Below, piece by piece: positions 26,401 through 56,256 of a DNA stretch of 64,000 nt (within the stretch, counting starts at the first letter, position 1; each line of letters starts with the position of its first letter). Position numbers and translations under genes: made by a program. The stretch covers positions 41,440 to 105,439 of the IMG/VR virus record IMGVR_UViG_3300044630_004416. The stretch is one strand, 5' to 3'. This stretch comes from a virus. Lineage: Duplodnaviria; Heunggongvirae; Uroviricota; Caudoviricetes. A model generated the notes under the pieces. It was not told the origin of the DNA and did no database searches. It saw only the letters and a program-made list of their open reading frames with translations.

Positions 26401-29400
26401 TCATGCTTTTCTTTTGTCTTTATTTTTACAACATTATTAATAATTGATGTTGTAATATTAAAGCTATAATCAACTTCTTTGCCTTCTACTTGACCAACAA
26501 ACGCAGTAAGGCCATTTCCAAATGTATTTGTATTATCTACAACTAATTGGTCTCCAGTTTTATAATAATTTCCACCATATTCTACATAAATTGAATCTAC
26601 AATTCCAGATGAAATAGAAGTATTTACTAGTGTAGTAGTTTCATTTAAATTATATTGTCTTGGGAAATTAACATTTTGTGGTCTATTTAATCTTATATAA
26701 TTTTTAGGAATATTGTCATTAGTTCTTCCACCACAAGTATTGAATACATCTGGAGTTGAATAATAGTTAGTGCCTACAAAATATGGGAAATTTGCACTAG
26801 CAAAATACGCATAAGTTCCTTCTGGAAATTCTGGTGTTACGCAAAATCTTCCATTAAATTCATCTAGTTTTGAAGTGGAACTTCTGGTAAAATCTTCAAT
26901 AAATGTTCCTAATGCATAAGTTGTAGTAGATGGTCCACCACTTCTAGCTTTAGTCCAATTAGTAGAAGGACACAAATCTATGATGCTACTACTTGAATTC
27001 AATGGGTCACTAAATCCATATCTACCATAAATTGGATTTCCATCATAAGCCCAACCAATAATTGGAGAGTGAGCAGTGGAAGTTATTCCATAGAAAGTTT
27101 CAAAATTTGATGTTACTGTTGTTTGTAGATATGCAGTAGAATTACTTGAATCACTGATATTTTGCTTTGTTACAATTTGTTCATTAAGTGTGCCACTTAA
27201 TGCTCTATCAGAATCTGACGCAGAATACACATATCCACCATAATTATCAATAATATTTTGAATGCTAGGATTTGTGAAAGTTGAAACAATGTTAAAAGTC
27301 CAAGTTTTGATATTAGTTGTTAAAACAGCTAATCTTCCTTTAGCAGTAATTTGTACAATTGGATTTATTGTATAATTTTGTCCACCATTTAATACGTTTA
27401 AACTAACTATTTTTCCAGTTGAAGAATTTATTATGGCTTTTGCTGTGGCATTTTGACCAACACCTTTAATGATAACATCTGGAGTGACAAAGTAATTAGT
27501 ACCCTCATTTACTAATGTAATTGATTGTACAACTCCATTATTAACAATAGCTTCACCAGAAGCACCAGTACCATTTAATGATTGAACTACTGGATTTGAT
27601 GAGTAACTAGTTGAAGTGAATGTTGAATTGGTAGAAACATTAATTACATTTGTATATAATGTTGATACTATACTTCCGATAAATTCTACAATTGATTCTT
27701 GATAATTTGAATCTGTAGAATCATCATTAATTAATGGAATATCATAGGTTTCAGATTTACCTCCACCTGATATTCTGATAATAGGAGCTTTTGTATATCC
27801 ATCTCCAGAATCTTTAATTATAATTGAATCAATTATTCCATTTTTATAACTTAAATCTAAAATTGCTTCTCTATAAGTATTTGAATTAGTTCCGTTAGTT
27901 GCTGCAATTACAGTAATAGTTGGCTTTTCTGTAAATCCAGATATATTTGAAATCTCAGATTCTGGTAGATTATTTAAATTAATTCCATTAATTTTTGCAG
28001 AAATTAAGAAATTAGTTACTGTTGATGTATTCTCTAAAATTATATCAGTGGATTGATTTCCATTCTTTAAAATTTTAAATTTTGGATAATTTTGTGTAAT
28101 GAATGAAGTTTCATTAGTAGGTACAACATATTCACCACCATCTTGAATTGTTATTTGCTGTAGTGGTCCATAGTTTATAGTATTTCCTTTTGGAGATTGA
28201 ATTTCAATACCATCAACTGTAATTCCAATTGCTTTTGATGCACTGATTGCAGAATCTGATTTTGGAAAATAAGGAATAATTCCAGTTGGACGCTTTACTC
28301 TCTTAACAAATTTTTGTATGTCGTAATTTCTAGTTTGATTTAATGCAGTATTAGAAATTCCATATTTTGGAATTCCAGATGATGACACATATAGATTTTT
28401 TTCATATTCATATAAACCTGTAATTCCAATATAAGAGTTTGATGGTGCTCCAGCAGGCTGAGCAGCAGTTTTTATTAGATGTGTATCATTAACATTCCAT
28501 GATGAATGCAGTGGACTTGAATAGTCTGCATTAATTTTATCAGTAATTGAATAAATTAATTTATTGTGTAACGCACCAGAATTTTCTATGATAACTGGAG
28601 ATGTAAGTCCAAGAACTCTTATTTCATATGTTTTATTTTCTGAGGTATCAGTTCTTACTGCATGGAAATACTTATGTATTGCACTTCCAATGTAACTCCA
28701 TTTGGCAGAACCATCAATCTTTGTTCCACTTACATGAACAGGTGCAGTTGATGATGTAGTGCCAGCTTTTACGCACTTATACAAGTTAAATCCATAATAT
28801 CTTATTTGACCAATGGTTACACTGGTGCTTGCAGACCATTGCTTATCTACTGATAGTTTATATCTTCCATATGCAACAATTTCGGTTCCAACTACTAATG
28901 TAGTTGAACTATCTCTATTACATTTAAAAAATTGATTTGCACTTCTTGAGGCATATTTAATTTTTTGCCCATTACAATATAAAATTCCATTTGAGATTGG
29001 GAATCCAGAAGCATCTTCTACTGTGATAGTAAAATTAGAAGTTGATGTTATCTGAGCTGTTAGTACAGTAGAAGCTGGAGAAATTAGTTGAGTATTATTG
29101 TACTTTCTATTTGTGTTTAATGAAATTTCATATATTTCTCTGGAATCATCTACTTTAATTATATTGTTTCCAGATAATGTAACTTGTGAAATATTATAAT
29201 CAGTATCTGCTTCCTGAACTATTTCGACAATTTCTGGAAAAACATTTTTGTCATCTAATTTATATAATGAATCTCCAATACATTCAACCTTTACTACGCT
29301 TTCATTTAGATAGTTAGCAGAAGATGCTTTAAATAAATTTTCTCTTGGTAATTCTACAATTGGGTCAATTGGAATTATATTTACAGATGGTTGACCCTTG

Positions 29401-30584
29401 ATATTTGGATTTGAATCTTCAGTAGTGTAATTTAAATCTATAGTTGCAGTTGGAGTTTCAAATCCAATACCATAGATTTTTGCAGTTTTTGTGAAAGAAC
29501 CTGTAATATTGTTTAAAATAAGTTCTTCTGTCTCTTGAATCCAATCATAAACTTCACCAGTTCCAATTATATTGCCATTATATTCACAAGTTACTAGTTG
29601 GGATTGATAGAATGTTCTTTCTCTTACTTCTGCTCTAATAGAACCAACATAGTTCTCACCAATATTTTCTACGGTAACGCCAGTTATTGTTCCAGTATTA
29701 GCATTTATTTGAGAAGATGAAATTGTTATTTCTGCTCTTTCTGGACGAATATTATTTGCGTTTTTCTGACCAGTTCCAGAACCATAAACAATAACAAGTG
29801 GAGGATTCTCTGGGTCATACCCTTGACCACCACTTACAATTTGAACATTTCCAATTTTTCCTGAATAATTTAATATTTTTAATTCAGCACCATTTCCTCT
29901 TGGTTTAATTTTTAATTTGACTTGTTTTTTATTGTATAAAATTCTGAAAAGAAACTTATGAGATACTTCAGTTCCTTTGGAAAGATAAAAACTCTTAATA
30001 TTTGTAATTAATGTTGATAGATTAATCTCATCATTTAATACTTCTGGAATATCAGGAAGAATTTCATATTTTACTCTTCTTAAAAATTCATTTACAAAAT
30101 TAAATGCAACATTAGTTACTGGAGATAATTCTGAATGAATATCTGCAGATGAAGAAGTAAATTCTACTTCTTTGTAATCATTGAATATAAATGCAGAATA
30201 TCCTCTTACACAATTTTGAAATTGTGTATCAGTTTTGGTTTTGTAGTAAATGATTTCATTATCAATTAAAATATATCCATCAGTTTCTGGAAACCCGAAA
30301 GTGCTAGTTACAGTAATTGTTGTGTCATTAATAGTCAATTCTTCTCTTAATTGAGTTTTTTCTACTAATGAAGATTTAGTAAAGTGAGTTACACTGTAAT
30401 AGTCAATTAAATTCTTTGTTAAATCAAGTGGATTATATTTCTGTTCTAGTGAACGATAATATAATTCAATAAATTTTAAGAATTTAGGATTATCGTCTTG
30501 AACAAATTGAGGAAATTGCTCAAAGACTAGATTTGATACATTTGAAATTTTTTCTTGTAATGTATACATTTTTATACTAGGCAC
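20457..30584 (-). CDS. giant baseplate/structural protein (3375 aa) at gp7 position
   Basis: 10.1-kb uninterrupted ORF directly downstream of gp6 (13-nt overlap). Repetitive Thr/Ser/Asn/Gly-rich composition. Internal SLGNTNWQSLGAPSGATVGTKF module. Confidence 0.7.
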   Translation of the reverse strand: MPSIKMYTLQEKISNVSNLVFEQFPQFVQDDNPKFLKFIELYYRSLEQKYNPLDLTKNLIDYYSVTHFTKSSLVEKTQLREELTINDTTITVTSTFGFPETDGYILIDNEIIYYKTKTDTQFQNCVRGYSAFIFNDYKEVEFTSSSADIHSELSPVTNVAFNFVNEFLRRVKYEILPDIPEVLNDEINLSTLITNIKSFYLSKGTEVSHKFLFRILYNKKQVKLKIKPRGNGAELKILNYSGKIGNVQIVSGGQGYDPENPPLVIVYGSGTGQKNANNIRPERAEITISSSQINANTGTITGVTVENIGENYVGSIRAEVRERTFYQSQLVTCEYNGNIIGTGEVYDWIQETEELILNNITGSFTKTAKIYGIGFETPTATIDLNYTTEDSNPNIKGQPSVNIIPIDPIVELPRENLFKASSANYLNESVVKVECIGDSLYKLDDKNVFPEIVEIVQEADTDYNISQVTLSGNNIIKVDDSREIYEISLNTNRKYNNTQLISPASTVLTAQITSTSNFTITVEDASGFPISNGILYCNGQKIKYASRSANQFFKCNRDSSTTLVVGTEIVAYGRYKLSVDKQWSASTSVTIGQIRYYGFNLYKCVKAGTTSSTAPVHVSGTKIDGSAKWSYIGSAIHKYFHAVRTDTSENKTYEIRVLGLTSPVIIENSGALHNKLIYSITDKINADYSSPLHSSWNVNDTHLIKTAAQPAGAPSNSYIGITGLYEYEKNLYVSSSGIPKYGISNTALNQTRNYDIQKFVKRVKRPTGIIPYFPKSDSAISASKAIGITVDGIEIQSPKGNTINYGPLQQITIQDGGEYVVPTNETSFITQNYPKFKILKNGNQSTDIILENTSTVTNFLISAKINGINLNNLPESEISNISGFTEKPTITVIAATNGTNSNTYREAILDLSYKNGIIDSIIIKDSGDGYTKAPIIRISGGGKSETYDIPLINDDSTDSNYQESIVEFIGSIVSTLYTNVINVSTNSTFTSTSYSSNPVVQSLNGTGASGEAIVNNGVVQSITLVNEGTNYFVTPDVIIKGVGQNATAKAIINSSTGKIVSLNVLNGGQNYTINPIVQITAKGRLAVLTTNIKTWTFNIVSTFTNPSIQNIIDNYGGYVYSASDSDRALSGTLNEQIVTKQNISDSSNSTAYLQTTVTSNFETFYGITSTAHSPIIGWAYDGNPIYGRYGFSDPLNSSSSIIDLCPSTNWTKARSGGPSTTTYALGTFIEDFTRSSTSKLDEFNGRFCVTPEFPEGTYAYFASANFPYFVGTNYYSTPDVFNTCGGRTNDNIPKNYIRLNRPQNVNFPRQYNLNETTTLVNTSISSGIVDSIYVEYGGNYYKTGDQLVVDNTNTFGNGLTAFVGQVEGKEVDYSFNITTSIINNVVKIKTKEKHDLSVGDYVYIDYSQDDDVYEINLDNVNQLTSNISGISGKTLYSVPLNFKKKFKLAITTTSSPFFSFDKSGTDRLFDKDISVTTNGSVKYITINAANIITPFYLHVGTKIFQIYASSPEVYGKYLVTEINEQDNYFYIEENNTNILNCIFTNIVYSTKSKTATGPIKTVDITNPGSGYRLLPYIASVKSSAGSGAILQTNSKSIGNIKNVEYSSVGNYFPTNQNVHYEVNTTYTAKIENNFEIYEVEVIHGGSGYFSEVSVTVNNSTEDTEKCKFDIYVFAGEIISVNVIGGGYNFTREPELKITSGSGSGATLKAKIRRRGLSVGSILSNTVTVSANKIVPNFEYEISSLGNTNWQSLGAPSGATVGTKFIAKVPGRGSGTATITNKSKVLYFDNNNSTVELLPILNDKLKIQDVVKLEIYDINYGKIYDVNYPKIYVKSDSSKKLQGKFLDSVGMIGENSQRIIDSNYYQDFSYTIKYPENKKVWTDAVVKNTHSAGFKLFGKYNIENTRRLFDNLNEVFQSSLVFKISLNGEINLKLKTPPCNVQRLLFNNSNSEEKKFVPYNLVFGISSETIAMVTEVFNNATDSNLDDSATVEIISGPGFIIGEIILSIPVGLELPNSAISSYKKSLIFWNGILQQPNYSYQLTEENPTAFIPKFPLVSSDELIGFFFETDFDLLDSFNLVNTQSTYNLFKDNLIYDVVSTATSSNFIVSMSGVVQDPSTYTISTTNNTITFNDTVKTGKVFIYYHPQISTITLSGNASDTTFTMSSSVDDDCKLVVFYNGINQSELITDYTYNVNTNQITFSEELPRSDIFIFKVNEQIECGQFDLSGLPDNTIKSLYNICTRKNVTQKVESNNVVTRDNFYELEKEVLDGTVYATSTKVYGIDTKFRYSTPEYSSSFVEILDDLSSQFNGSLTSFKMTCLGGTNPNILNPATDNSLLVSINGTNISENQYYTSGSNIVIKNSSNQAYPANTKATVFSFNSSYKIKDSDNVVRAYGGGWLQPITNQFDGVKDTFALSKDGVPQYTKNAGDVFVIRDGVLQRPDTTAYTLSKHRITFVDKPQETTLIKPIYFVRQLTPTNHQNIVLDSFKQFDGNTCQFPITFINSNLYTITDTTNISASNKLFVFKNGSYETPTTDYVVTNAGSTSASITFTDCPDSTDNIFAYYNKRTVTEIGFTQASAGTTITLTYAGTVNFTGQVNSMPYDSTVLYTSDAFLVFVDGVLQSPSSWSYNSSTKVLTLGQSVNINTQTVKVYLIHANMLDNISMVTGTSTYNITRNSVAYTPLHFTVNSTIPSESVLVAVNGVVQHPSTYTISGTTITFNQITNGATVSLYDTAIGQAIVDNLSDTIDCVNDTFRILRNFELYNSYTDSQDILVSINGVVKQPGLDYTVTNSSIITFLTDIPCTGDDIFMIGMYNNQYITLTNTSGNTYTLSSSISTYQREGLVVSYNGVLQTVGNGFTFVNSNTITFDSYLDSPPSYPSNIWAYLFEGAKVLDELNTPFDNIRDKFRLIWSSTYNELLAPEGNPDTTVNNPEIPEPTGIIVTKNDKILDPGVDYTLNGPNKTLIDFVTPPAPTDVIHIKTFGAFRKLTSITSGFNGTTKAFNMTYNGNPYYPNKIIDRPRKYENQILVIRDGNLLSPIYDYYVDNNQIIFNVAPASTTSKIVLLDFVGTVDDIKVDSYDNQVSVGDTIKIAGEYGTRTVTNIICPTILETETYTPTTTPSQLDATGFSATASIQNGIVTSINVTNSGYRYVNPPIIRTIGSGVGPKVVGSVDENGKVQSTFTFQYPGYNTYVTPTVKLTNYAYVQRKQLLTSNEVRKCTKLSAAMNSSATSFSVIGTSIFEQNPPTITVSSVSATGSGASFTIFVSGGKVVKVSVAQGGSNYNDLDTELVVTGGGGSGCVLEPVINSSGSFTAVNVRNGGYGYDNFRVFIDNEAIDYTYVDSTTNVISGCTRGVAGSTASSHSINDLVVYDKFI

Positions 30585-33404: not shown

Positions 33405-33725
33405 TTAGTTTGCAAAGACGGTCGTTGGACCTGATAGTATTGTACGTGGAGAAGAGGGAGCTGTCAAGTCCCCTACATGAGCTGTCATCCTACCTTCTTT
33501 AAAAACAGTACTCACTGAGATAATCTGTCTATACAGAGGAGGACAACCAGAATCGCAACTTGGAATTCCAGGAACAGGAGTTAATACGTCTCCTAGTTTA
33601 GCAGTTGGAAGTCCATTAGTAAAAATTCTACTTGCTACTGGAGTTACAGTATTTGGTGGATATGTACAACATGGAGGTCCAAATGAAACTGAATCTGGAA
33701 ATCCTAAAGTTGCTACTTGTCTCAT
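33405..33725 (-). CDS. small Cys-rich protein, possibly PAAR-like spike tip
   Basis: 106 aa with GPPCC and CDSGCPP, plus LGDVLTPVPG and AHVGDLTAPS segments (H-x-GD then T-A-P-S). Immediately downstream of the 959-aa structural gene with overlapping stop and start. Confidence 0.35.
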   Translation of the reverse strand: MRQVATLGFPDSVSFGPPCCTYPPNTVTPVASRIFTNGLPTAKLGDVLTPVPGIPSCDSGCPPLYRQIISVSTVFKEGRMTAHVGDLTAPSSPRTILSGPTTVFAN

Positions 33726-36601
33726 GTTTCGTCTCTCTTTTTATAAGGCCAGAATTGAGATAATTTAAACCCTACTTGATAACTTGTAATTACAGAATTT
33801 ATTTCTGGTGCATTTTCAAATGGAACAGTAGTACTTTCAAAGGTATAAGCCTTTCCTGTACCAGAACCATATCCAGTAGCTGTAAATATAGTGCCTACAG
33901 CTGCATTATCAGGAGCACCAATAGATTTCCAATTGGTGGTTCCTAGTGTATGTATTATATAGTCAACACCAGGAATGAATTGCCCAGCGTCGATAAGGTT
34001 TTCAAATGTTGATGTTGTTTGATACACTCCTCTAATACAATTACTAAAAGATGTATCAGTTTTTCCTTTGTAGTAAATAATTTCTTCACCTAGGTAATAA
34101 AACACAGATTCAATATTTTCTGTAATGTCTTCTTTTCTTTTCTCAATATATTTGGGAATGATTAAATACCCAGATGAAAGAAACCCACTGGTACTATCAA
34201 CATTAATTGTTGTTGCAGTTGAAGATAGATTTGAAGTTAATGATGCATATACTGGATTATCAATAAATCCATTTCCTTTATTGAGAATTACTTCACCAAT
34301 ATAGTTACTAATTTCTTCAACTCTAAATTGAAACTTTTTACCATAATCAATTTGTTGGTTTACTCCATCATTCCATACTTGTTCTGGATATGGTCTTGCA
34401 GATAGACCATCATCCCCTGCAGTAGGAGCAACCCATGATTTAGAAACAGTTGTTGGAACCAATGGATTTAATGGATTTGTAATGTCTGCAACCGCATCAA
34501 ATGCACCAGCAGAACAAGCAATGTTTGTAATATATCCGTTAGTTCTAGTTGTAGTAATGGTATATCCATCATTGACGATGTTATCACCAGTTACTCCATT
34601 AAAAGTAACAGTTCCTTCCCATCTTGGAATTGATTTAATAACTACATCAATTTTGTTTTCACTGCTGTCTACTATTACACTGTCGTCAGTCTCAAATACT
34701 ACATCATTTAATAAGTATTCAAGTTTAGAGAATTTTGGTGGAATTCTCTTAAATTTAGTTAATAATAAATCTACTGATGATTTATTCTCACCTATAATTG
34801 TAGCTGGAACTTGAGGAATTTTAGTATTGACTGGAACAGACTCTTCAATACTTTGCATTGCCTTCATTAAATTATTAACTAATGAATTTTCTCCTCCAAT
34901 AAATTGATTGTACATTTCTTGTGGAAGTACAATTGAGGATGAAGACAAAGTATTTGAAATAGTATTGTTTAGATATTGAGATAGCTCATCAACAGAATAT
35001 GCAGATTGTGGACGTACATCAATACAATCATCCTCTACTAGAGTATTGGTGACTGTATTAATCATATTCTTTGCCATAGAAATTTCTTTGTATGGATTAT
35101 ATACTTTCGCATATGTCTGAGAAATTTCATCACCACAAACATCATCTGTTACTTTGGATACTTTTTTTCCATTTAATAGAGTTTTGTTGTGAGTAATTAT
35201 TCTATCTTCTAATTCTGTATATGAAAGATTTTTTGAGTTACTTTCACCAAGCCAATAAAGTAGCTTAGTTTTATCTACAGGTCTATTGAAGTTTGTCCAG
35301 TAAATGTTATCAATAATATAAGAAGTTTCTGTCTTTGGATTTACACAAAGACTTGTATTTGTTAATAATGTAGTACCATCATTTAATATAATACTTCCTA
35401 TAATGTAGTCTGCATCATTTTCTGGAATAATTTCCTGTTCGCAGTCTGTACTTTTATTATAGAATAGTGGAAGATATTCTAGTGTTTTTTTATCTTGTGC
35501 AAAATAAGTTCCAACTACAGCAGAACGATTTGTAATTCCTTTACCTGCATATACTTTTATACTTGCACCAGAACCAGTGGCAGTATATGTACTTGTAGTA
35601 TTAAAACTGGAACCGCTACCAGTTAATTCTGCATAACAAAGTGTAGATGCATTGACTTTATTTGTAGCTGCACTTGTAAAAACTACTGATTTAATTTTCT
35701 TACTTTTAACAGGATTTGATAATACAATTTTATTATCTGTAGAAGAAATAGATGTTACTGTAGTATCTGATTCAATACCAGTACCAACTACTCCATCACC
35801 AACTGAAATGTTTGATTTATCACCAACATAAATGTAAGAATTGGTATTCCCTGGCTTTGAATGCTTTACTACTCTTTTTCGTAAAGATTTATCTGTAATG
35901 TAGTTAATGACTCTACTTACAGTCCATCCGTTTACAGTATCACCTTCTGTAATTACAGTATTTGTAGTTGAAGTATATTTAAAGAATATTTTATTGTCAT
36001 CAGTTCCTCCATGGTAAATGTAACTACCAGTAGGAATACTTTGAATGCTGCTGTCTACTTTATCTAAAGTTAAAGTTGCAGTAACATTTTTACTATCAAC
36101 TGTGTATGTTGTAAGTGCAGTTGTTGTTGAACCACCACCTCCACCACCAGCAGGAGAAGTAGAAGTTTGAGTAGTTGCAACAAAACCACCAACTGTTCTG
36201 GTTAGATTAAATGTAGTGGGCCATTCAAAGATATGATAAAAGTATTCTTCATCATAAGAGTGATTTGCTCTACACTCTCTTTCAAATACAGGTTTTACAC
36301 CGTTACTTCCATCTGGAACGTATTCTTGGTTTGAAACGGTAATTGTATCAAATGTTACATCACCATTATCATCCTCTCCTGATGGAGTCTTAATGGTTTG
36401 TGTAATAAACTTTTCTAACTTCTGAGCATTCTGTATGAACTTGTTGGTATTACTTGCAGGGTCTATCTCGTACCAATACTTTTTAGTGTGATTAAAGCTC
36501 AGTGTTGTACTAGAAGATACTGGAGGGTCTCCACTTGTAGTGGTGTATGTATAAGTATATGTCTTTGATATTTGCTCTTTTTTTGGTCTGCAATTTCCCA
36601 T
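33722..36601 (-). CDS. large structural protein (959 aa), candidate baseplate hub/spike-associated
   Basis: Poly-Gly stretch (PAGGGGGGSTTT). C-terminal HTLGTTNWKSIGAPDNAAVGTIFTATGYGSGTG module shared with two baseplate proteins. First gene of the baseplate operon. Confidence 0.6.
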   Translation of the reverse strand: MGNCRPKKEQISKTYTYTYTTTSGDPPVSSSTTLSFNHTKKYWYEIDPASNTNKFIQNAQKLEKFITQTIKTPSGEDDNGDVTFDTITVSNQEYVPDGSNGVKPVFERECRANHSYDEEYFYHIFEWPTTFNLTRTVGGFVATTQTSTSPAGGGGGGSTTTALTTYTVDSKNVTATLTLDKVDSSIQSIPTGSYIYHGGTDDNKIFFKYTSTTNTVITEGDTVNGWTVSRVINYITDKSLRKRVVKHSKPGNTNSYIYVGDKSNISVGDGVVGTGIESDTTVTSISSTDNKIVLSNPVKSKKIKSVVFTSAATNKVNASTLCYAELTGSGSSFNTTSTYTATGSGASIKVYAGKGITNRSAVVGTYFAQDKKTLEYLPLFYNKSTDCEQEIIPENDADYIIGSIILNDGTTLLTNTSLCVNPKTETSYIIDNIYWTNFNRPVDKTKLLYWLGESNSKNLSYTELEDRIITHNKTLLNGKKVSKVTDDVCGDEISQTYAKVYNPYKEISMAKNMINTVTNTLVEDDCIDVRPQSAYSVDELSQYLNNTISNTLSSSSIVLPQEMYNQFIGGENSLVNNLMKAMQSIEESVPVNTKIPQVPATIIGENKSSVDLLLTKFKRIPPKFSKLEYLLNDVVFETDDSVIVDSSENKIDVVIKSIPRWEGTVTFNGVTGDNIVNDGYTITTTRTNGYITNIACSAGAFDAVADITNPLNPLVPTTVSKSWVAPTAGDDGLSARPYPEQVWNDGVNQQIDYGKKFQFRVEEISNYIGEVILNKGNGFIDNPVYASLTSNLSSTATTINVDSTSGFLSSGYLIIPKYIEKRKEDITENIESVFYYLGEEIIYYKGKTDTSFSNCIRGVYQTTSTFENLIDAGQFIPGVDYIIHTLGTTNWKSIGAPDNAAVGTIFTATGYGSGTGKAYTFESTTVPFENAPEINSVITSYQVGFKLSQFWPYKKRDET

Positions 36602-36658
36602 TTAAGTTAACTATAAAATTGTATGAAACGCTTAATAATTTCTCAAAAAATTGCGAAA

Positions 36659-36839: not shown

Positions 36840-37290
36840 TGTGTATGAATATTTACAGTATATAGTAAAAAAATTTTTTTTACATTTTTTCAGAATTTTT
36901 TGAATTTTTCGGTGAAATTTTTTCCGAGAATTTTCAAAATTTCTCTGATTGTGATGTAAATGTATGAAAATTCCTCGGAATGAGTCGTTTTTGTGCTTAT
37001 TTTAGTGATTTTTTGAGTCATTTTGAGGAATTTTGTGGGCAAATGGGGGAATTTGGGGAAAACTTGGAGGGACTTGGAGGGACTTGGAGATTTTTCGGAA
37101 AATTTTTTTGGGTGATTGAGTATCTTTCGGTCGTCTTCAAAGGTTTATAGCTTAGGAGGGACCCAAACTTTTTGTACGGGGCGGGGCGGCCAACCCATAA
37201 GGGGCGCTAATGACTGCCCTCTGCTCCCATAAGGACTGCTGATGCATCAGAAGGGCTGATGAATGGGGGCCGAAGCCCCCTGAATCTCTC
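36840..37290. repeat. repeat-rich non-coding region at a compositional boundary; candidate origin or regulatory region
   Basis: At least 8 copies of GAAWTTTT (36890-37100). Three tandem ACTTGGAGGG units (37061-37090). Imperfect 20-bp direct repeat CCCATAAGGnnnGCTrATG at 37193 and 37227. Palindrome CTGATGCATCAG. Ends in hairpin GGGGGCCGAAGCCCCC (37265-37280). GC rises from about 25% to about 60% across it. No ORF. Confidence 0.55.
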
Positions 37291-37291
37291 A

Positions 37292-37459
37292 TCAGACATC
37301 CATCTCCAGAAGCTTGCCCAGAAGGGCTTCCACATCCTGGCGGGATTCAAACAACTGCCAGGGCTGGCTGCGACGGTCGGCGGCAATCAGGCCAGACATC
37401 ACCAAACGGCGAGCGATGCGAATCTCGGCGTTGGTCAGGGTCAGGGTCTTGGTGGGCAT
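37292..37459 (-). CDS. small GC-rich-island protein (55 aa)
   Basis: MPTKTLTLTNAEIRIARRLVMSGLIAADRRSQPWQLFESRQDVEALLGKLLEMDV with strongly G/C-ending codons. Preceded by the TGCTAGGATT-CTCAGTTCAAA leader. The track's 168-aa version (37292..37798) is read-through across the upstream gene. Confidence 0.45.
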   Translation of the reverse strand: MPTKTLTLTNAEIRIARRLVMSGLIAADRRSQPWQLFESRQDVEALLGKLLEMDV

Positions 37460-37532
37460 TGGTCGGTTCCTTTGAACTGAGAGAATCCTAGCATGGATGG
37501 GGGAGCCCCGAAGGGCTCCCGTTAACATTTGT

Positions 37533-37844
37533 TCACACAGGCGTGTTGCGGTCCTGGCTCCAGTTACGCAGCCTGCGGTTGCTGGCCTTGCTGTAAACTC
37601 GGTCGCCAATGGTACGGTCCCCCACGGTGATGGCGCTGCGGCCTGCAGCATCAGCGGCGGCCTGCAGGGCTTGGCGACCCAGCTTGCGCTCAGAGGGAAG
37701 GGCGACCTCAGAGGTGGCCAGGTCAAACAGCCACTGAGCACGGTGGCGGCCCACGATGGTGGGTTCCTTGATGGTTCGCTTGGCGAGGGCCACGGCAATG
37801 ATGGTGGGAACAGCGGTGCGGGTCAGACGGTCGGAGCGGGTCAT
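37533..37844 (-). CDS. hypothetical protein of GC-rich island (103 aa)
   Basis: High-GC codon usage (acc, cgc, ctg, gcc). Preceded by GC hairpins and a TATAAT box. Confidence 0.5.
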   Translation of the reverse strand: MTRSDRLTRTAVPTIIAVALAKRTIKEPTIVGRHRAQWLFDLATSEVALPSERKLGRQALQAAADAAGRSAITVGDRTIGDRVYSKASNRRLRNWSQDRNTPV

Positions 37845-37958
37845 GGTCTCAGGTAGGTTGTGGGGGCTTCTCTCGCCCCCGTGTTCATATTATAGGGTAT
37901 CGGGGGGAGGCTGGCGATGCCCCAGCCCCGACTTGTAACAAACTGAAATAATTATATT

Positions 37959-38627
37959 TTAGGCGACAATCTCATTGACTGTTTTTTTAGCATTACCGTG
38001 AGCAGGGAAAGCAATAATGAAGTCCCTGTCTGCTTTAGCACAAAGGCCACAAGTTGCACAAGTTACATTCTCATGAATAGTTGCAGGACAAGTGATAACT
38101 TTACGACCAGATTCTGTTTTATAGAATCGTTCGGTTTTATCAGACTTGACAACAGCCACTGCAGGAATGTTGTGCTCAGTCATGATAGCATCAGCCACCT
38201 CAACATCCTCAGTGGATGCATTGATTGTGAAGCCTTTGTTGTTAGCTTCCTTGATGACTTGCAGGTTGTGGTTGTTAAGAACGTGGTGGGTATAAGTGTA
38301 ACCTTTGCGGCCTTTGTTTGCATCAGCCAGTGCAGATACCATGGGAGCATTAATGTCACCCAGGATATGTGGCAGGTCGCCAGATACATTGTGCCGCCAG
38401 AGTTGGCCACGCTGAAGCTTGCGAATTGCGTTCACAAACTCCTGGAAATTAACACCCCTTTCCTGTTCAGTTACCTTGCGCCAGTGAATAGCTTGGGGGC
38501 CAGACTTGGCGTAGCAACCTTTATCGTAAAAGGGGCAAGTGCTGGGGCAGGTCTCACGGCTGGAGGTGCTGGTAGGGATGGGGCCAGTCTTAGCGTTGCT
38601 GGAGACCTGGGTGAGAGCGAAGTTCAT
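37959..38627 (-). CDS. Cys-rich hypothetical protein (222 aa), possible metal-binding
   Basis: N-terminal CPSTCPFYDKGC and C-terminal CPATIHENVTCATCGLC clusters. Moderately GC-rich codons. Preceded by the same TGCTAGGATT-CTCAGTTCAAA leader as the 55-aa gene. Confidence 0.55.
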   Translation of the reverse strand: MNFALTQVSSNAKTGPIPTSTSSRETCPSTCPFYDKGCYAKSGPQAIHWRKVTEQERGVNFQEFVNAIRKLQRGQLWRHNVSGDLPHILGDINAPMVSALADANKGRKGYTYTHHVLNNHNLQVIKEANNKGFTINASTEDVEVADAIMTEHNIPAVAVVKSDKTERFYKTESGRKVITCPATIHENVTCATCGLCAKADRDFIIAFPAHGNAKKTVNEIVA

Positions 38628-38693
38628 GACTTGGGTTTGAACTGAGGTAATCCTAGCAGGTGGTGGGGGCTGGAGAGCCCCCTGTTACAAAGC

Positions 38694-38933
38694 TTAACCT
38701 TTGGCCAGCCAGTCGGAGACTGACATAATCCAGCCCTCGCTGTGCCAGGTGCGGAATCGGTCAGTCTTAAACTGTTCCCACTGTTCGGCAGTCAGCTGGT
38801 GGCCTTCCACCATAACGGGCTCGGTGCTGGGCTTGGGCTTAGCCTGTCCCAGGTTAGCACGGAACCGCTCGGCGGCAGCATCAGCCTGGCTCAGCTCAGG
38901 GCTCAGGCCAGGGAGGTGCTCGGTGTTGAACAT
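38694..38933 (-). CDS. hypothetical protein of GC-rich island (79 aa)
   Basis: GC-rich ORF preceded by a TTGTAACA-hairpin-TGTTGTAGGATT leader. Confidence 0.5.
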   Translation of the reverse strand: MFNTEHLPGLSPELSQADAAAERFRANLGQAKPKPSTEPVMVEGHQLTAEQWEQFKTDRFRTWHSEGWIMSVSDWLAKG

Positions 38934-39009
38934 TGGTCGGTTGCGACTGCCCCAGAATCCTACAACATGGGGGCTGCCACCTGGCCAGCCCTGTTACAAT
39001 TTGAAATAT

Positions 39010-39585: not shown

Positions 39586-39795
39586 GATGTTTCAGTGAAT
39601 GAACTTTAATAATGTACAGGATGGGGGCTGAGTTGTCAACCCCCTTGTGACACTATCAGAATTGGATTTCTTCTAGTGTGGGCTCCATAGATTCATCCAC
39701 AGAATCTACAGAAAGCATGTCCAGAATGGTGAGAATCTCATCACCAGTCTGACCTTTGCGAAGCATCGAAATCAGCAGTTCTTTAGACATAATAA

Positions 39796-39927: not shown

Positions 39928-39965
39928 GGGTTGTTCAGTAGTGAACGAGTTCAGTATGGCATGGG

Positions 39966-40009
39966 TGGGGGCTGGTGTCAACCCCTGATTGATTAGAGTT
40001 GCTTATCAT
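39966..40009 (-). promoter_or_regulatory. PeSL-like cassette copy A: GC hairpin overlapping a sigma70-like promoter
   Basis: Minus strand reads GGGGTTGACACCAGCCCCCACCCATGCCATACT (TTGACA-17-CATACT). About 43 bp nearly identical to copy B. Confidence 0.5.
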
Positions 40010-40328: not shown

Positions 40329-40370
40329 TTGAGTGGTTCAGAATTGAACAATGATAATTTAACTCTAAAA

Positions 40371-40413
40371 GGGGCTGGTGTCAACCCCCTGACTGATTAG
40401 TGTTACTTATCAA
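40371..40413 (-). promoter_or_regulatory. PeSL-like cassette copy B
   Basis: GGGGCTGGTGTCAACCCCCTGACTGATTAGTGTTACTTATCA. Minus strand TTGACA-17-TAAATT. Confidence 0.5.
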
Positions 40414-40595: not shown

Positions 40596-40653
40596 GAGTG
40601 GTTCAGAAGTGAACAGTAGCAACTTAACCCAGATTCAGAGCCCTGTCAACCAT

Positions 40654-40857
40654 TCATTCATAAGTGTTACTAATCTGATTGATAGTCTTTTCTAATGTAT
40701 TCAGTTCTTGTTCATTTAGTCCAAGAACATATTCTTCAATAATATCTTCTATAAGTTTATAGTTATTATTATACAATTCATTCGTGAGTGATTCAATCAT
40801 CTCATCTTGTTTCATGGATTTTGTGTTAAAGTATTGAAGAATTTCTGAGTAGTTCAT
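40654..40857 (-). CDS. small acidic protein (67 aa)
   Basis: ORF translationally coupled (ATGA) to the upstream 56-aa gene. Confidence 0.5.
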   Translation of the reverse strand: MNYSEILQYFNTKSMKQDEMIESLTNELYNNNYKLIEDIIEEYVLGLNEQELNTLEKTINQISNTYE

Positions 40858-41024
40858 TTCTTAATTACCAGGGCACCATACTTGTTGAGTTTACCTGCAC
40901 ATGGTTTGTTATCATACAGGCCAAAGTAATACTTACCAATACTAATACCAAACTGTTCATCACCTGATTTAGCCCTAGTATTAGCTCCAATGTAGAGGAA
41001 TCGGGAATCAATTGAGAATTTCAT
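40854..41024 (-). CDS. small protein (56 aa)
   Basis: Manual translation MKFSIDSRFLYIGANTRAKSGDEQFGISIGKYYFGLYDNKPCAGKLNKYGALVIKK. Sits 23 nt downstream of a near-consensus sigma70 promoter. Confidence 0.5.
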   Translation of the reverse strand: MKFSIDSRFLYIGANTRAKSGDEQFGISIGKYYFGLYDNKPCAGKLNKYGALVIKK

Positions 41025-41047
41025 GGGTTCAATGTGTGAACAGAGTC

Positions 41048-41077
41048 ACTATAGGGGGTTTTCGGAGGGTTGTCAAG
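41048..41077 (-). promoter_or_regulatory. sigma70-type promoter P1 (TTGACA-17-TATAGT)
   Basis: Minus strand reads CTTGACAACCCTCCGAAAACCCCCTATAGTGACTCTGT. Confidence 0.65.
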
Positions 41078-41156
41078 AGGGTTTGAATAAGTATATCTTA
41101 TATGGTTAATAATCTCTAGATATACTTAATAATTATTTGTTACCCTCCACAGAGTC

Positions 41157-41185
41157 ATTATACACATATCTGGGTGTGTTGTCAA
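41157..41185 (-). promoter_or_regulatory. sigma70-type promoter P2 (TTGACA-17-TATAAT, perfect consensus)
   Basis: Minus strand reads CTTGACAACACACCCAGATATGTGTATAATGACTCTGT. Shares TATARTGACTCTGT with P1. Direct repeats TATATGGTTAATAAT twice and ATATACTTAATAATT three times nearby. Confidence 0.65.
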
Positions 41186-41360
41186 GTGTATATGGTATAT
41201 GGTTAATAATTTGTAATATGGAGTTTTCCACAGGTTTTTCCACAGGGCTGTGGAAAACTATCAAAGGGGCTCGGAGTGATTAGGAGTGCTTATATTAGTA
41301 TTCCTTATGAGTGGCCTCGGAATGATTTGGAATACTTATGAGTTTTTTGGGGCTGGGGGC

Positions 41361-41389
41361 TTGACAAATTTCGGAAGTCATGGTATACT
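41361..41389 (+). promoter_or_regulatory. plus-strand sigma70-type promoter (TTGACA-17-TATACT), divergent from P1/P2
   Basis: CTTGACAAATTTCGGAAGTCATGGTATACTG on the plus strand. Perfect inverted repeat TTTTCCACAGGGCTGTGGAAAA lies 110 bp upstream. No convincing plus-strand ORF downstream. Confidence 0.55.
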
Positions 41390-41613
41390 GCGGGCCAAGA
41401 CTGCTGCAGCCCCGTACATTTCAGATACTTTCTCTGACACCATCGGACACACACACATACAAATACAGTATATACTTAATAATTCTCTCTCTACACATTA
41501 TATACTTAATAATTTCTCTTATTCCTTCTCTCTATACATAACACTCAACTATATTTTTTATTACATTTAATGAATGTTAATAATTTATACTAATTTTAAC
41601 ATATCTTTCCGCA

Positions 41614-41814
41614 TCACATATACTTTATCATTGAATCTGCTATTTGCCAACAATATACTGATACTAATTCATCAGCATCTACTTCTGCATCTTTTGCTGC
41701 TCTCTGAAAGTTTGTTTCTAATACATTTGATGCTAACTGTGCTAATGCTATCTTAGCAAATTCAATTCTTAATTCTTGCCTTGTTTCTTCTGTTAAATTC
41801 ATGTGAAGGTACAA
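41614..41814 (-). CDS. hypothetical small protein
   Basis: 66-aa ORF. Likely real start at the internal MNLTEETRQ. Confidence 0.4.
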   Translation of the reverse strand: MYLHMNLTEETRQELRIEFAKIALAQLASNVLETNFQRAAKDAEVDADELVSVYCWQIADSMIKYM

Positions 41815-53622: not shown

Positions 53623-53879
53623 TCTACAATTAAACAATAACGACATTGGAAAGCAAAAGTTTCTTTTTGCCAAGTTTTCTTCACACCATTTTCTTCCCAA
53701 GAATACACAACTTCATACCAAGGGTCTGTGCTCCCATAAGAATTGAGACCTTCAACGGTCACATAACCTTTAGAACCATCTGCCCGTGCCCAACGAGAAC
53801 CAACTTGGATTTCGTGTGGTTTGAAGAAATGACGGACAACTGCTTTACGTCCATCTATGATTTCAGTTTCGTAGTTCAT
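53619..53879 (-). CDS. hypothetical protein (86 aa)
   Basis: ORF. Confidence 0.45.
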   Translation of the reverse strand: MNYETEIIDGRKAVVRHFFKPHEIQVGSRWARADGSKGYVTVEGLNSYGSTDPWYEVVYSWEENGVKKTWQKETFAFQCRYCLIVE

Positions 53880-54931
53880 CGGTCTTTATGCTTCAGTAGA
53901 TACGAGTTGGCAATTGCCTTGAAAGTAAAAGCACTCCAAAAAGATTTGAATACCAAACCTTCACGTTTTGTTTGAGGATTCAGTGATGGACCTTCAGCAA
54001 ACTCCAGAAGTTCATCAATAGTGCTGAGGTTCTTAGTAAGTTCAAAACATGGTTCAATAATAGGAACATGCTCAATATCAGCACCAGCTCGTTTTAGTTG
54101 GTCAAGAACAGCATAGCGTTCAAATGGAGTCATATAACGACTTTCAGTGATACTATAAATGTCAAACAGATAGAACCGTTGACCTTTGAGTTTCTCTGGA
54201 TTGCCCTGAATACCCTCACCAATCAATTCGCCTTGAATGGCATATTCTTCACCTTTTTCTTTAGAGAGTTCAAGAAGTGGTTCAATGATATTCTGCTCTC
54301 GTGCTGCTTTCCAGAAACTATTACCCTCAGTTTCCTTCAGGTCAATATTCCTGGAACACACACCAACCTCACCATCTTTAATGTAGATAGTGGTGCTACT
54401 GCCATCAAGTTTAGTAGTCACTTCATAAGTATTATCTTTATAAGTTTCAAAGATGTCTTTACGAAGATTCTGACAACGTTCTTGGTCAGTTTTAGGAATG
54501 AAGTGTGGGAAGTTACCCTTCATTGTGCCCTGAAGTTGAGCAGGGATAGGTGGTTCCCACTTCTGAATATTCAAAATATGAGATACATCTTCACCTACAG
54601 AAGCATCATTAGCAATAGAACCAAGACAATTCAGTGGCAGTAGCAGCCCCTGACTTACTTGACCACGAAGTTTAACAGTACGAAGACGTTCACCCTTCAC
54701 ACCATTATATTCACGAGGTTCTTTCCCACTGCTGAGAAATGGAGCGAGTTCATGAGGAACCCAACTATCAATCTCAAAATATACAGCAGTATCTCCAATC
54801 TTATATTCATCTTTTTTGACCACTACAGGCCAACCACCATCAACGATGGCACACTCAATAGCATCAGCACCTTCAATAGGCTTGATGTATGTGATAGGTC
54901 GAATCGAGGCAAGTTTACGCACAGTGTTCAT
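53876..54931 (-). CDS. RNA ligase, nucleotidyltransferase KxDG type (DraRnl/Rnl2-superfamily-like)
   Basis: Motif I TTKLDGSS, motif IV REGLVFK, motif V KAIANSYLLKHKD. N-terminal beta-rich extension. 351 aa. Last gene of the RNA-repair cassette. Confidence 0.55.
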   Translation of the reverse strand: MNTVRKLASIRPITYIKPIEGADAIECAIVDGGWPVVVKKDEYKIGDTAVYFEIDSWVPHELAPFLSSGKEPREYNGVKGERLRTVKLRGQVSQGLLLPLNCLGSIANDASVGEDVSHILNIQKWEPPIPAQLQGTMKGNFPHFIPKTDQERCQNLRKDIFETYKDNTYEVTTKLDGSSTTIYIKDGEVGVCSRNIDLKETEGNSFWKAAREQNIIEPLLELSKEKGEEYAIQGELIGEGIQGNPEKLKGQRFYLFDIYSITESRYMTPFERYAVLDQLKRAGADIEHVPIIEPCFELTKNLSTIDELLEFAEGPSLNPQTKREGLVFKSFWSAFTFKAIANSYLLKHKDR

Positions 54932-55404
54932 CAGAAGTCTCCTTTGCCCTGGGCAACGTCAAAAGTAAATATACCACGGTCCTGCCACATTGTCAAGACC
55001 CTCTTGCGGTCATCAAAAACTGCAAAGATTTGATACTGTTCTTCAATTATATCAGCAATCTCTGCTTTTACAATAGCATCATCACGATGGTCCTTATACT
55101 TTCTCATATAAAGAGCATTATAATCATCAGTAAATATATTATGTTTTTCCAGCCATTCTACAGTCACATCACGATAATCATCAGAACGACCACTCACAAA
55201 GAAAACAGGAAAGAAATACTTCAATGCATGAAACATTGCAAGCACTTGCTTTACAGGTTTGTCTTGACTAATTCCTTTGTTCCATGCATCCCAATTTCTT
55301 GGCTTGGTTGCAACAAATTGACGACGATGTTTTACATCACAAAGAGTACCATCAAGGTCAAAAATGATGCACTTTTCTTTAGGAGTATTCGTAGAGGAAT
55401 CCAT
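54931..55404 (-). CDS. HAD-family polynucleotide 3'-phosphatase (T4 Pnkp C-terminal domain homolog, stand-alone)
   Basis: IIFDLDGTLCD, FVSGRSDDY and FDDRKRVLTMWQDRGIFTFDVAQGKGDF align with T4 Pnk VIFDVDGTLAK, VVSGRESGT and [26 protein letters not shown]. Confidence 0.75.
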   Translation of the reverse strand: MDSSTNTPKEKCIIFDLDGTLCDVKHRRQFVATKPRNWDAWNKGISQDKPVKQVLAMFHALKYFFPVFFVSGRSDDYRDVTVEWLEKHNIFTDDYNALYMRKYKDHRDDAIVKAEIADIIEEQYQIFAVFDDRKRVLTMWQDRGIFTFDVAQGKGDF

Positions 55405-55756
55405 GATTAGTAGTATAATGAATGTGAGTGATACCTGCTTCTTTTAGTGCAAGTTCACAAATAGGACATGGGCGAGCCATTCGTAGTTTACCCTGTGGAT
55501 TGACCCTAGCAACAATCACAGTGTCAACTTCTTCACGACACTTAACAAGTGCTGCAATCTCTGCATGAAGGTAAATCTTTTCTTTCAGTCCTACACGCTC
55601 TGCAAACTTTGCTTGAAGAGGATGCGATTTAGTTTCAAGATTAGTTGCACTTACAATTACTTTATTTTTGTTAAGCAAAAGTGCTCCCACTTGTTTTTTA
55701 GAAGGAGAACTCTTTGCAGTTGCAATTGCTTGGTCAAATACCGAGTCAGAAATCAT
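55379..55756 (-). CDS. CDA-fold zinc deaminase (cytidine/dCMP/tRNA-adenosine deaminase-like), 125 aa
   Basis: LHAEIAAL followed by PCPICE gives the H-A-E...P-C-x2-C zinc-binding signature. Inserted between the kinase and phosphatase ORFs. Confidence 0.6.
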   Translation of the reverse strand: MISDSVFDQAIATAKSSPSKKQVGALLLNKNKVIVSATNLETKSHPLQAKFAERVGLKEKIYLHAEIAALVKCREEVDTVIVARVNPQGKLRMARPCPICELALKEAGITHIHYTTNHGFLYEYS

Positions 55757-56256
55757 CAGGCCACCTGCAGCTTAAGATGAGTGCCATCATGTGTCATAAT
55801 GACATCAAAACCTTCTTCTTCAGTTGGCATTTCAAATTGAAGGAACATGCGATGCAGAACAGAACGTGGAATAAATTTATTCGCTCTTTGCGAATTACGA
55901 ATAAGAGCATCTTCAAGTGTAATAGGAAGAATCACTACAGTCTTGGTATAAGTATCTGGAATCTTCTTCAGCTTCTGCCTACGAGATTTTTTAGATAGAT
56001 TGGTTTGGTCCCAGATGATTGACTTACCTCGTTGAATGGCAAGGTCTAGGTCTTGATACATTTTTGTGGTAGCATCCTTGATTGCTTCATCAAAGACTTC
56101 ATTGTAAGTTTTACCTACAGATGCAGCATATTCTTCGATGTAGTTATCTGTAGATAGTATCACATACTCATCAAAAACATCAGAGTTTTCAGTTCCCCTG
56201 CGAATGTAAGTAGATTTACCTGCACAAGGAATACCACACATCATAATCAGTTCCAT
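55756..56256 (-). CDS. polynucleotide 5'-kinase (T4 Pnkp N-terminal domain homolog, stand-alone)
   Basis: P-loop GIPCAGKST, SIIWDQTNLSKKSRRQKL and RNSQRANKFIPRSVLHRMF align with T4 Pnk GCPGSGKST, VIISDTNLNPERRLAW and RNSKRGTKAVPIDVLRSMY. Confidence 0.75.
   Translation of the reverse strand: MELIMMCGIPCAGKSTYIRRGTENSDVFDEYVILSTDNYIEEYAASVGKTYNEVFDEAIKDATTKMYQDLDLAIQRGKSIIWDQTNLSKKSRRQKLKKIPDTYTKTVVILPITLEDALIRNSQRANKFIPRSVLHRMFLQFEMPTEEEGFDVIMTHDGTHLKLQVA

Follow-up and report, generated by a model that had tools for sequence, protein, structure and literature searches.

A conserved non-coding early-promoter module in an uncultured T4-like phage, a candidate transcription-activated replication origin

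In phage T4, the origins oriF and oriG consist of a promoter and an A+T-rich DNA unwinding element, the sequence of which is not specific, and the transcript made from the promoter forms an R-loop that primes replication (PMC3016281). The T4 origin oriE has an early-mode promoter and a cluster of direct repeats (PMC3016281). In the T4 record, the primer RNA of oriE is the complement of the gene 5 transcript, and the endonuclease gene segC adjoins the origin. To our knowledge, replication origins have been mapped experimentally only in T4, and they are essentially unknown for the environmental T4-like group, including its cyanophage relatives. Here we describe a locus from an uncultured T4-like phage (record IMGVR_UViG_3300044630_004416), in the 64,000-nucleotide stretch from position 41,440 to position 105,439 of that record. 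We call this whole 64-kb stretch the window and number positions from its first letter. The locus is the 589-bp gap at 41025-41613, which lies between two small ORFan genes inside a run of small early-type genes. Judging from its sequence, this gap in the early (hyperplastic) region is a non-coding and conserved control module that is built from early-promoter parts for the host RNA polymerase. We tentatively suggest that the module is a transcription-activated replication origin similar to oriE and oriF of T4.

Two other described phenomena bear on this locus. Shuffling by promoter early stem-loop (PeSL) cassettes has been documented in T4-type phages (PMC2839356, PMC4122927). In addition, antisense RNAs protect mRNA from RNase E during infection of Prochlorococcus by the cyanophage P-SSP7 (PMC3113571).

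The plus-strand promoter and the DNA downstream of it

The gap contains three promoters of the sigma70 type (-35 TTGACA, spacer of 17 +/- 1 bp, -10 TATAAT). Two of them, P1 and P2, are in tandem on the minus strand, the strand that carries nearly all open reading frames (ORFs) of at least 120 amino acids (aa) in the window. The third is on the plus strand and diverges from P2. The original prediction, which was made from the letters of the window, had described this arrangement, and our consensus scan recovered all three sites (11/12 for P1, 12/12 for P2 and 11/12 for the plus-strand promoter). Sites scoring at least 11/12 occur 12 times in the window, counting both strands, against 5.6 +/- 2.1 in Markov simulations. 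Three such sites inside 340 bp have a probability of ~0.02 under uniform placement and were seen in 0/40 simulations.

The plus-strand promoter (41361-41389) is of the early type and reads TTGACA-17-TATACT, with the -35 at 41361-41366, the -10 at 41384-41389 and a TG at 41381-41382 that makes an extended -10. A GC-rich discriminator (GCGGGCC) and a leader follow (41390..41446). From promoter spacing alone, we place the start of transcription at A41397, and the first 50 nt are conserved.

The module is ~450 bp and non-coding. Contigs of related uncultured phages have it at the same syntenic position, in 21 further distinct sequence variants. A search with a DNA pattern for the module yielded 7 viral and 15 true metagenome stretches, and one further hit (L016) was a chance match. 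Nineteen loci were recovered by the DNA pattern search, and two more, L006 and L007, were recovered by a search with the neighboring 56-aa protein alone. The module in these two has 76% identity over 308 nt and one change in the pattern. Because L006 and L007 were found only through the protein, the conservation is not an artefact of the search. The relatives reached through this protein have a strongly conserved block around the plus-strand promoter.

The pattern of conservation is that expected of promoter hexamers under selection. Among 13 distinct sequences, the TG is invariant and the -10 is 97% conserved, compared to 79% for the spacer. Across 22 loci, there is hardly any variation in the -35, TG, -10, discriminator or first 12 transcribed bases; the -35 and the first transcribed bases were fixed by the DNA search pattern except in L006 and L007. 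That the hexamers are fixed while the spacer drifts indicates selection on promoter function, and on this evidence the plus-strand promoter is very probably real. Identity of the module between phages is 73-87%, versus 69-85% for the flanking genes.

The arrangement around the promoter is also conserved. In every locus, the module is at the same place in the gene order and the genes face the opposite way from the promoter, the one plus-strand exception being an insertion in locus L026 that is described below. Every locus with a left flank has a leftward TTGACA-17 promoter 78-182 bp from the plus-strand promoter. The parts follow a fixed order: leftward promoter, inter-promoter block, plus-strand promoter, discriminator, leader, 1-4 repeats, a C/T-rich stretch and TATATTTTTTATTACATTTAAT. 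The inter-promoter block (41270..41359, both strands) consists of two CTCGGARTGATTWGGARTNCTTAT units (41270-41293 and 41317-41340), a T6 tract (41343-41348) and a G-run (41349-41359), and that of the relatives has CTCGGARTGATT...CTTAT units, the T6 tract and the G-run. Read on the minus strand, the CTCGGARTGATTWGGARTNCTTAT units resemble an ATAAG-N7-AATCA element found upstream of other early promoters. The plus-strand promoter also shares with several other early promoters a G-run (GGGGGY) ahead of the -35.

The predicted transcript has no recognizable product. In agreement with the original prediction that no credible plus-strand ORF follows the promoter, we found no conserved plus-strand ORF after it in the window or in the relatives, and we therefore rejected a hidden gene; the only real ORF is a GIY-YIG gene inserted in L026. 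The transcript does not contain a tRNA, a tmRNA or a known RNA family (there was no Rfam match at the gathering score, and the other hits were spurious), and no intrinsic terminator was found downstream of the promoter. Folding of 217 nt of the RNA gave -18 kcal/mol (z = -1.8), that is, a barely folded molecule. A small 5' hairpin of 4-5 bp is predicted at +25 to +41, where 41421-41425 pairs with 41433-41437, and the CCG at 41412-41414 pairs with the CGG at 41444-41446. Only the small hairpin has support, from two covarying pairs (UA/AU in 10 and 7 sequences; GC to AU in 1), with no broken cells at one pair. A long 5' stem was rejected because its 8-9 bp in one subgroup are lost without compensation in the subgroup of the window. 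No trans targets of the conserved 5' end were found within the window, and the transcript lacks the hallmarks of a trans-acting small RNA, namely a terminator or defined 3' end, a conserved fold and membership in a described family.

The original prediction also proposed an antisense or regulatory RNA. The predicted transcript is indeed non-coding and antisense in orientation, but a dedicated target is not supported, since the position convergent with the promoter is filled by five unrelated genes across the relatives. Because the overlapped gene varies between phages, a dedicated cis-antisense regulator of one target gene is unlikely.

The strongest feature of the locus, which goes beyond the original prediction, is that the plus-strand promoter is directed into the least stable and most G-depleted DNA of the window. 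No duplex in the window is less stable than that at ~41450-41610, just downstream of the promoter, whether measured over 60, 100 or 150 bp. The G content of its plus strand is 2%, again the lowest in the window. In the relatives, the same position is the locus-wide stability extreme in 12 of 16 and in the top 0.5% in the rest. We regard the AT-rich, G-depleted block (41447..41613, both strands) as a candidate DNA unwinding element. It holds a degenerate repeat at ~41574-41585 and the near-invariant TATATTTTTTATTACATTTAAT at 41550-41571, the latter in the conserved part of the module, which extends as far as the stop codon of the neighboring 41614..41814 gene.

Direct repeats are present on both sides of the plus-strand promoter. 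ATATNNTTAATAAT has five exact copies in the window, all of them in 41100-41513 and on one strand, and this count was reached in 0/100 shuffles. On the minus (gene) strand, the repeats read AATTATTAAS and then ATAT, in the same orientation in all copies of the window and its relatives. Two copies form a pair in the leader between P2 and P1 (41100-41113 and 41120-41133; (A)ATTATTAAS-ATAT), and this pair is present in 8 relatives. A third copy is just upstream of the P2 -35 (41197..41210), and two more are 30 bp apart downstream of the plus-strand promoter (41470-41483 and 41500-41513). Thus, the repeats that had been placed between P1 and P2 are there in only two of the five cases. In the relatives, the downstream repeats number 1-4, and both number and spacing vary. 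In 7 loci, a repeat copy is at -81 or -93, between the divergent promoters, and is transcribed by neither. Because of these untranscribed copies, a DNA-level role for the repeats seems more likely than an RNA-level role.

Other identities for the repeats were considered and rejected. The late promoters of this phage are of the type NATAAATA and are sited elsewhere than this promoter hub. The repeats do not match that late consensus, and the earlier suggestion that the hub is an early-to-late switch was not supported. Nor do the repeats have a consistent -10 at a fixed distance, as would a MotA-box-like middle promoter. Possible resemblances of the repeat to RegA sites and to Hfq (ARN) sites were likewise set aside. 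The ATTATTAAS motif is also found in the spacer of the promoter of a gene encoding a 959-aa protein, and it overlaps the -10/+1 of other early promoters (36618-36646 and 39611-39639). Locus L012 has four ATTATTAAS copies with 20-bp spacing at ~-3670 to -3560 from the promoter, and these coincide with the least stable DNA of that locus.

A possible replication origin and the alternatives

We favor, with something less than even confidence, the interpretation that the module is a transcription-activated replication origin. We postulate that the strong rightward early-type promoter, with its consensus -35, extended -10 and GC-rich discriminator, would fire against the direction of every gene. RNA polymerase would transcribe the short conserved leader with its small hairpin and then the 1-4 repeats and the AT-rich block. 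The untranslated, structure-free transcript could stay hybridized in the unwinding element as an R-loop and prime replication; alternatively, transcription might simply open the unwinding element. On this model, a protein would bind the DNA at the repeats, some of which are in the spacer between the promoters, where they are not transcribed. In favor of an origin, we count the T4-like nature of the phage, the conservation of the module at a level no lower than that of coding sequence, the constraint on the promoter elements, the lack of an obvious product or of a conserved antisense target, the extreme downstream DNA, the T4 precedents (with oriE paralleled by the antisense early promoter and the direct repeats), the untranscribed repeat copies, and a hotspot of gene content at the right edge of the module; T4 origins are known as recombination hotspots.

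Several observations weigh against an origin. As a control, we ranked the validated unwinding element of T4 oriF, which was only in the top 1-2.6% of its 50-kb segment (100-150 kb), and the stability extreme of that segment is an ordinary intergenic region with no origin. Therefore, the measure of duplex stability is suggestive and not specific. A pure unwinding element would have no need of a conserved sequence, yet the TATATTTTTTATTACATTTAAT part of the block is conserved. Pyrimidines and A dominate the predicted RNA, which has ~2-6% G, a composition that favors unstructured RNA and weak hybrids. Such G-poor RNA gives the weakest RNA:DNA hybrids, and the classical R-loop primers are G-rich. 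The module has no sequence similarity to the T4 origins, and there is no composition skew switch at the site, skew being uninformative here as an origin signal. The phages carrying the module are all uncultured, and origin function is a prediction from their sequences. Adjacent homing endonuclease genes could have homogenised the region by co-conversion, thereby inflating its apparent conservation. Lastly, ATTATTAAS overlaps the -10/+1 of real early promoters and occurs in arrays in other intergenic gaps, so the repeats may be early-promoter halves left as recombination scars rather than iterons. They could be binding sites for a protein (an origin-binding protein or a repressor of early promoters) or, equally, leftover promoter halves.

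We also considered a new kind of origin, in which a G-free, unfoldable transcript from a host-type early promoter invades the weakest duplex, and in which a phage protein binds the flanking ATTATTAAS repeats and also silences the early promoters with the same motif at -10/+1. If true, one short motif would couple the onset of replication to the shut-off of early transcription. We regard this elaboration as a long shot.

A possible but unlikely alternative is that the promoter is used for non-coding antisense or insulator transcription, in which polymerase would run against the upstream transcription unit and meet it at its end. Read-through from the variable genes on the right would then be ended or degraded, through collision or the formation of double-stranded RNA, which would isolate the early genes served by P2 and P1. 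Alternatively, a long antisense RNA would modulate the stability of upstream mRNA. The conserved promoter is convergent with every upstream gene, and no intrinsic terminator separates the upstream gene from the module. A role of this kind would be independent of the resident gene, which fits the variable neighbor. The C-rich, G-poor and unstructured transcript would be a good loading site for Rho in a host that has it, and antisense RNAs that protect against RNase E occur in cyanophage infection (PMC3113571). However, antisense or insulator transcription leaves three things unexplained: the direct repeats that flank the promoter, the sequence-conserved T-run block and the conservation of the stability extreme. 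In addition, no other plus-strand promoter of like quality was found at unit boundaries in the early region.

It is rather improbable that the module is a mosaic of early-promoter scraps at a recombination hotspot of PeSL-like cassettes, with a plus-strand promoter that has no dedicated role. The remnants would be upstream halves (the ATAAG-N7-AATCA-TCCGAG units), downstream halves (the ATTATTAAS repeats) and one complete cassette inverted by chance. The repeats and the inter-promoter units do resemble genuine parts of early promoters, all in the gene sense, the copy number and spacing of the repeats vary, and the surrounding gene order and content are shuffled between phages, as documented for PeSLs in T4-type phages (PMC2839356, PMC4122927). 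However, an inverted scrap should decay, yet the promoter elements are almost invariant in the 22 loci and at least as conserved as the neighboring genes, and the order of the parts is fixed.

The right edge of the module is a hotspot of gene content, and this raises the possibility of a platform for homing endonucleases. At this edge, 8 loci have an HNH-family gene and one has a GIY-YIG gene; three other ORFans are found there as well. The GIY-YIG gene (PF01541, SegE-like; 343 aa) is in L026, a 166-kb contig (JACCDW011618514.1), where it lies on the plus strand, inserted exactly within the conserved T-run block, and runs from +177 to +1208 relative to the predicted transcription start. This gene, behind the promoter and in its orientation, is the best indirect sign that the plus-strand promoter is active. 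The HNH endonuclease family protein (~205 aa; phrog_953, E = 1.6e-79; no Pfam hit) is encoded at ~+200 to +840 from the promoter, abutting the module, in L009, L012, L013, L020, L021, L022, L028 and L030. The window has an unrelated 62-aa ORFan there. If the block were a landing or cleavage site, the promoter might be kept to express the endonucleases, and gene conversion would conserve the block. The L026 insertion, 177 nt behind the predicted start, and the 8 abutting HNH-family genes are consistent with this idea. However, of the ~17 loci that have a right flank, only 1 has a plus-strand gene, the HNH-family gene is encoded on the minus strand and so cannot be expressed from the plus-strand promoter, and the promoter is intact in all of the genomes that are free of endonuclease genes. 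In addition, drift of the spacer with fixed hexamers points to selection on promoter function and not to recent conversion. We consider such a platform distinctly improbable.

Finally, it is very improbable that the transcript is a trans-acting, G-free decoy whose 2-4 UAUACUUAAUAAU repeats titrate a host or phage RNA-binding protein or RNase or pair with the repeats of the P2 leader: the RNA repeats are perfectly complementary to the copies between P2 and P1, the variants of the repeat on the two sides tend to agree within any one genome (TAGTT in L024 and L026, for example) and the RNA is predicted to be single-stranded, but the left-hand repeat copy is untranscribed in 7 loci, there is no terminator or protective 3' structure, some phages have a single repeat, and no partner is known.

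If the module is a transcription-activated origin, it would provide a concrete origin candidate for uncultured phages that is recognizable from sequence. It would also provide a simple search recipe based on divergent early promoters, an early promoter antisense to the genes, and the weakest duplex of the genome. If it is not an origin, the module would be a clear case of a strong and conserved promoter for non-coding antisense transcription, in a genome in which all genes face the opposite way. In either case, it marks a hotspot for the exchange of homing endonuclease genes and ORFans.

Leftward promoters, palindrome and neighboring genes

P2 (41185-41157, minus strand; TTGACA-17-TATAAT) is a perfect match to consensus and is the divergent partner of the plus-strand promoter. 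P1 (41076-41048, minus strand; TTGACA-17-TATAGT) is 24 nt upstream of the 56-aa gene, and there is no ORF between P2 and P1. The two are copies of a duplicated promoter module, as had been predicted: 41040-41077 and 41149-41186 (minus strand) are 71% identical, and both end in TATARTGACTCTGT, which is downstream of P1 and P2 and has no other exact occurrence. A P1-type promoter (TATAGT) is kept in 8 loci. The tandem pair, with a spacing of ~100-110 bp, is also retained in 8 loci and therefore is not the mark of a recent deletion. Many small genes on the minus strand between 33 and 58 kb have an exact TTGACA-17 promoter ahead of them, and P1 and P2 are ordinary members of this reused family of early-promoter cassettes, which resembles PeSL cassettes. 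We predict that P2 and P1 start leftward early transcription of small ORFan genes.

The first of these genes (40854..41024, minus strand) encodes the 56-aa protein. This protein and a 67-aa product had both been described as acidic, which is correct for the 67-aa product; the 56-aa protein is basic (10 K/R versus 4 D/E). Homologues of the 56-aa protein are encoded in 6 viral contigs (82-91% identity), and family searches with it gave no match. In the relatives, the 56-aa and 67-aa genes have traded places and several ORFans have been gained or lost, changes that fit cassette shuffling. On the other side of the module is the 41614..41814 ORFan gene (minus strand; 62/66 aa), which is convergent with the plus-strand promoter and occupies a position that is variable among the relatives.

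Two further sequence elements recur among the early genes. Three early promoters on the minus strand have a GGGG...CCCC stem-loop with the -35 TTGACA in its loop (39623-39644, 39967-39985 and 40371-40389), where 0 are expected by chance. Such a composite of promoter and terminator is the PeSL design known from T4-type phages (PMC2839356, PMC4122927). A GTTCA-N3-5-TGAAC palindrome is just upstream of four early-gene start codons (39933-39946, 40336-40349, 40601-40614 and 41027-41041). It has 5 matches versus 0.5 expected and might form a 5'-end hairpin that substitutes for a Shine-Dalgarno sequence.

A palindrome between P2 and the inter-promoter block appears to be an accessory insertion (41222..41259, both strands). 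The original prediction of a perfect inverted repeat was right about its presence but not about its center or position: the arms are at 41236-41245 and 41248-41257 around a 2-nt center (GG), not around GGC at 41243-41264. The element has three TTTTCCACAG half-sites, two direct and one inverted. Likewise, TTTTCCACAGG has two direct copies and one inverted copy, with 12-nt arms at 41222-41233 and 41248-41259. Folded as DNA, the palindrome has z = -5.1. It is not a terminator, since the strong hairpin lacks a T-run on either strand. It also does not appear to be a conserved operator or, as had been proposed, a regulator site for the hub, because it is restricted to the window, L010 and L017 (3 of ~21 loci). 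L010 (IMGVR_UViG_3300033571_016046) has the TTTTCCACAG palindrome on both flanks of the module, and L017 has four half-sites. The palindrome behaves like a small mobile or protein-binding repeat of some phages.

The window is assigned to a T4-like myovirus. The large terminase (TerL) is 73% identical to the terminase of Synechococcus phage S-CREM1, and the window also encodes a tail sheath protein, baseplate wedge proteins (one of them a 3375-aa giant), a superfamily 2 (SF2) UvsW-like helicase, two RNA ligases and a polynucleotide kinase/phosphatase. Among isolate phages, there is no DNA homologue of the module, only a single 72-nt coding match to S-CREM1, and the equivalent region of S-CREM1 lacks comparable promoters. 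A search of bacterial genomes for a clue to the host gave a sole hit, a chance match in a 1.8-kb contig of a metagenome-assembled genome.

Other features of the window stand apart from the module. There are two giant virion proteins, of 2089 aa and 3375 aa (12390-18659 and 20457-30584), and the latter has only patchy matches to baseplate and virion-protein families. The 3375-aa ORF and a palindrome with a 3-nt loop led us to suspect a hairpin promoter for an N4-like virion RNA polymerase, which was ruled out because the giant protein matches baseplate/virion families and the phage is T4-like. A 959-aa protein (33722-36601) at the position of T4 gene 5 has no family match whatsoever. A set of RNA-repair genes at 53876-57410 encodes an Rnl2-like ligase, a polynucleotide kinase phosphatase domain, a deaminase-like protein, a P-loop kinase and an Rnl1-like ligase, with kinase and phosphatase encoded by separate genes. 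Lastly, 37000-39000 is a GC-rich island (GC 0.53-0.56, versus 0.27-0.41 on either side) with the look of recently inserted foreign DNA; it contains GC-rich hairpins and a DUF7227/GP88-family gene (37959-38627). In related loci, this site has a DUF7227/GP88-family gene or a different gene.

Comparison with known systems

The module shares some features with systems in which host promoters or antisense transcripts act during infection. Like the P-SSP7 antisense RNAs, its predicted plus-strand transcript would be antisense to phage genes. The P-SSP7 RNAs cover specific mRNAs, whereas the gene overlapped here varies between phages and all that is conserved is intergenic. The promoters A1, A2 and A3 of phage T7 are stacked near-consensus host promoters ahead of early genes, one of them small and acidic, and P2 and P1 resemble this arrangement. 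However, the T7 promoters are at the genome end and face one direction, whereas those here are internal and paired with a divergent promoter.

The early promoters of this phage are closer to PeSLs. In both cases, strong sigma70-consensus early promoters precede small ORFans in a hyperplastic region and genes are shuffled between close relatives, and three neighboring promoters here have the -35 in a GGGG...CCCC stem-loop. In contrast, P1, P2 and the plus-strand promoter lack the polyG/polyC stem-loop, and a G-run rather than an AT-rich tract is upstream of the -35. In addition, PeSLs have been described in the gene sense, whereas the module has a conserved inverted copy.

Among replication origins, T4 oriE is similar to the module in its early-mode (host sigma70) promoter, in a primer transcript antisense to the local gene and in its location next to a GIY-YIG endonuclease gene and upstream of baseplate wedge genes. 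Both have direct repeats nearby, those of the module varying in number and spacing and resembling promoter halves. The T4 repeats, the role of which is itself unproven in T4, are 12 nt, evenly spaced, upstream of the promoter and inside the coding sequence of gene 5. In contrast, the repeats of the module are 14-20 nt, 30-42 bp apart and in non-coding DNA downstream of the promoter, with additional copies upstream. The oriE transcript encodes RepEA and RepEB, whereas the module transcript has no conserved ORF; RepEB homologues elsewhere in the genome were not searched for. The promoters of oriF (uvsY) and oriG (gene 34) are MotA-dependent middle promoters with transcripts that are also mRNAs, whereas the promoter here is of the early type and its predicted transcript is non-coding and antisense. 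As in oriF and oriG, the promoter of the module is directly followed by an A+T-rich element, which here is the stability minimum of the window.

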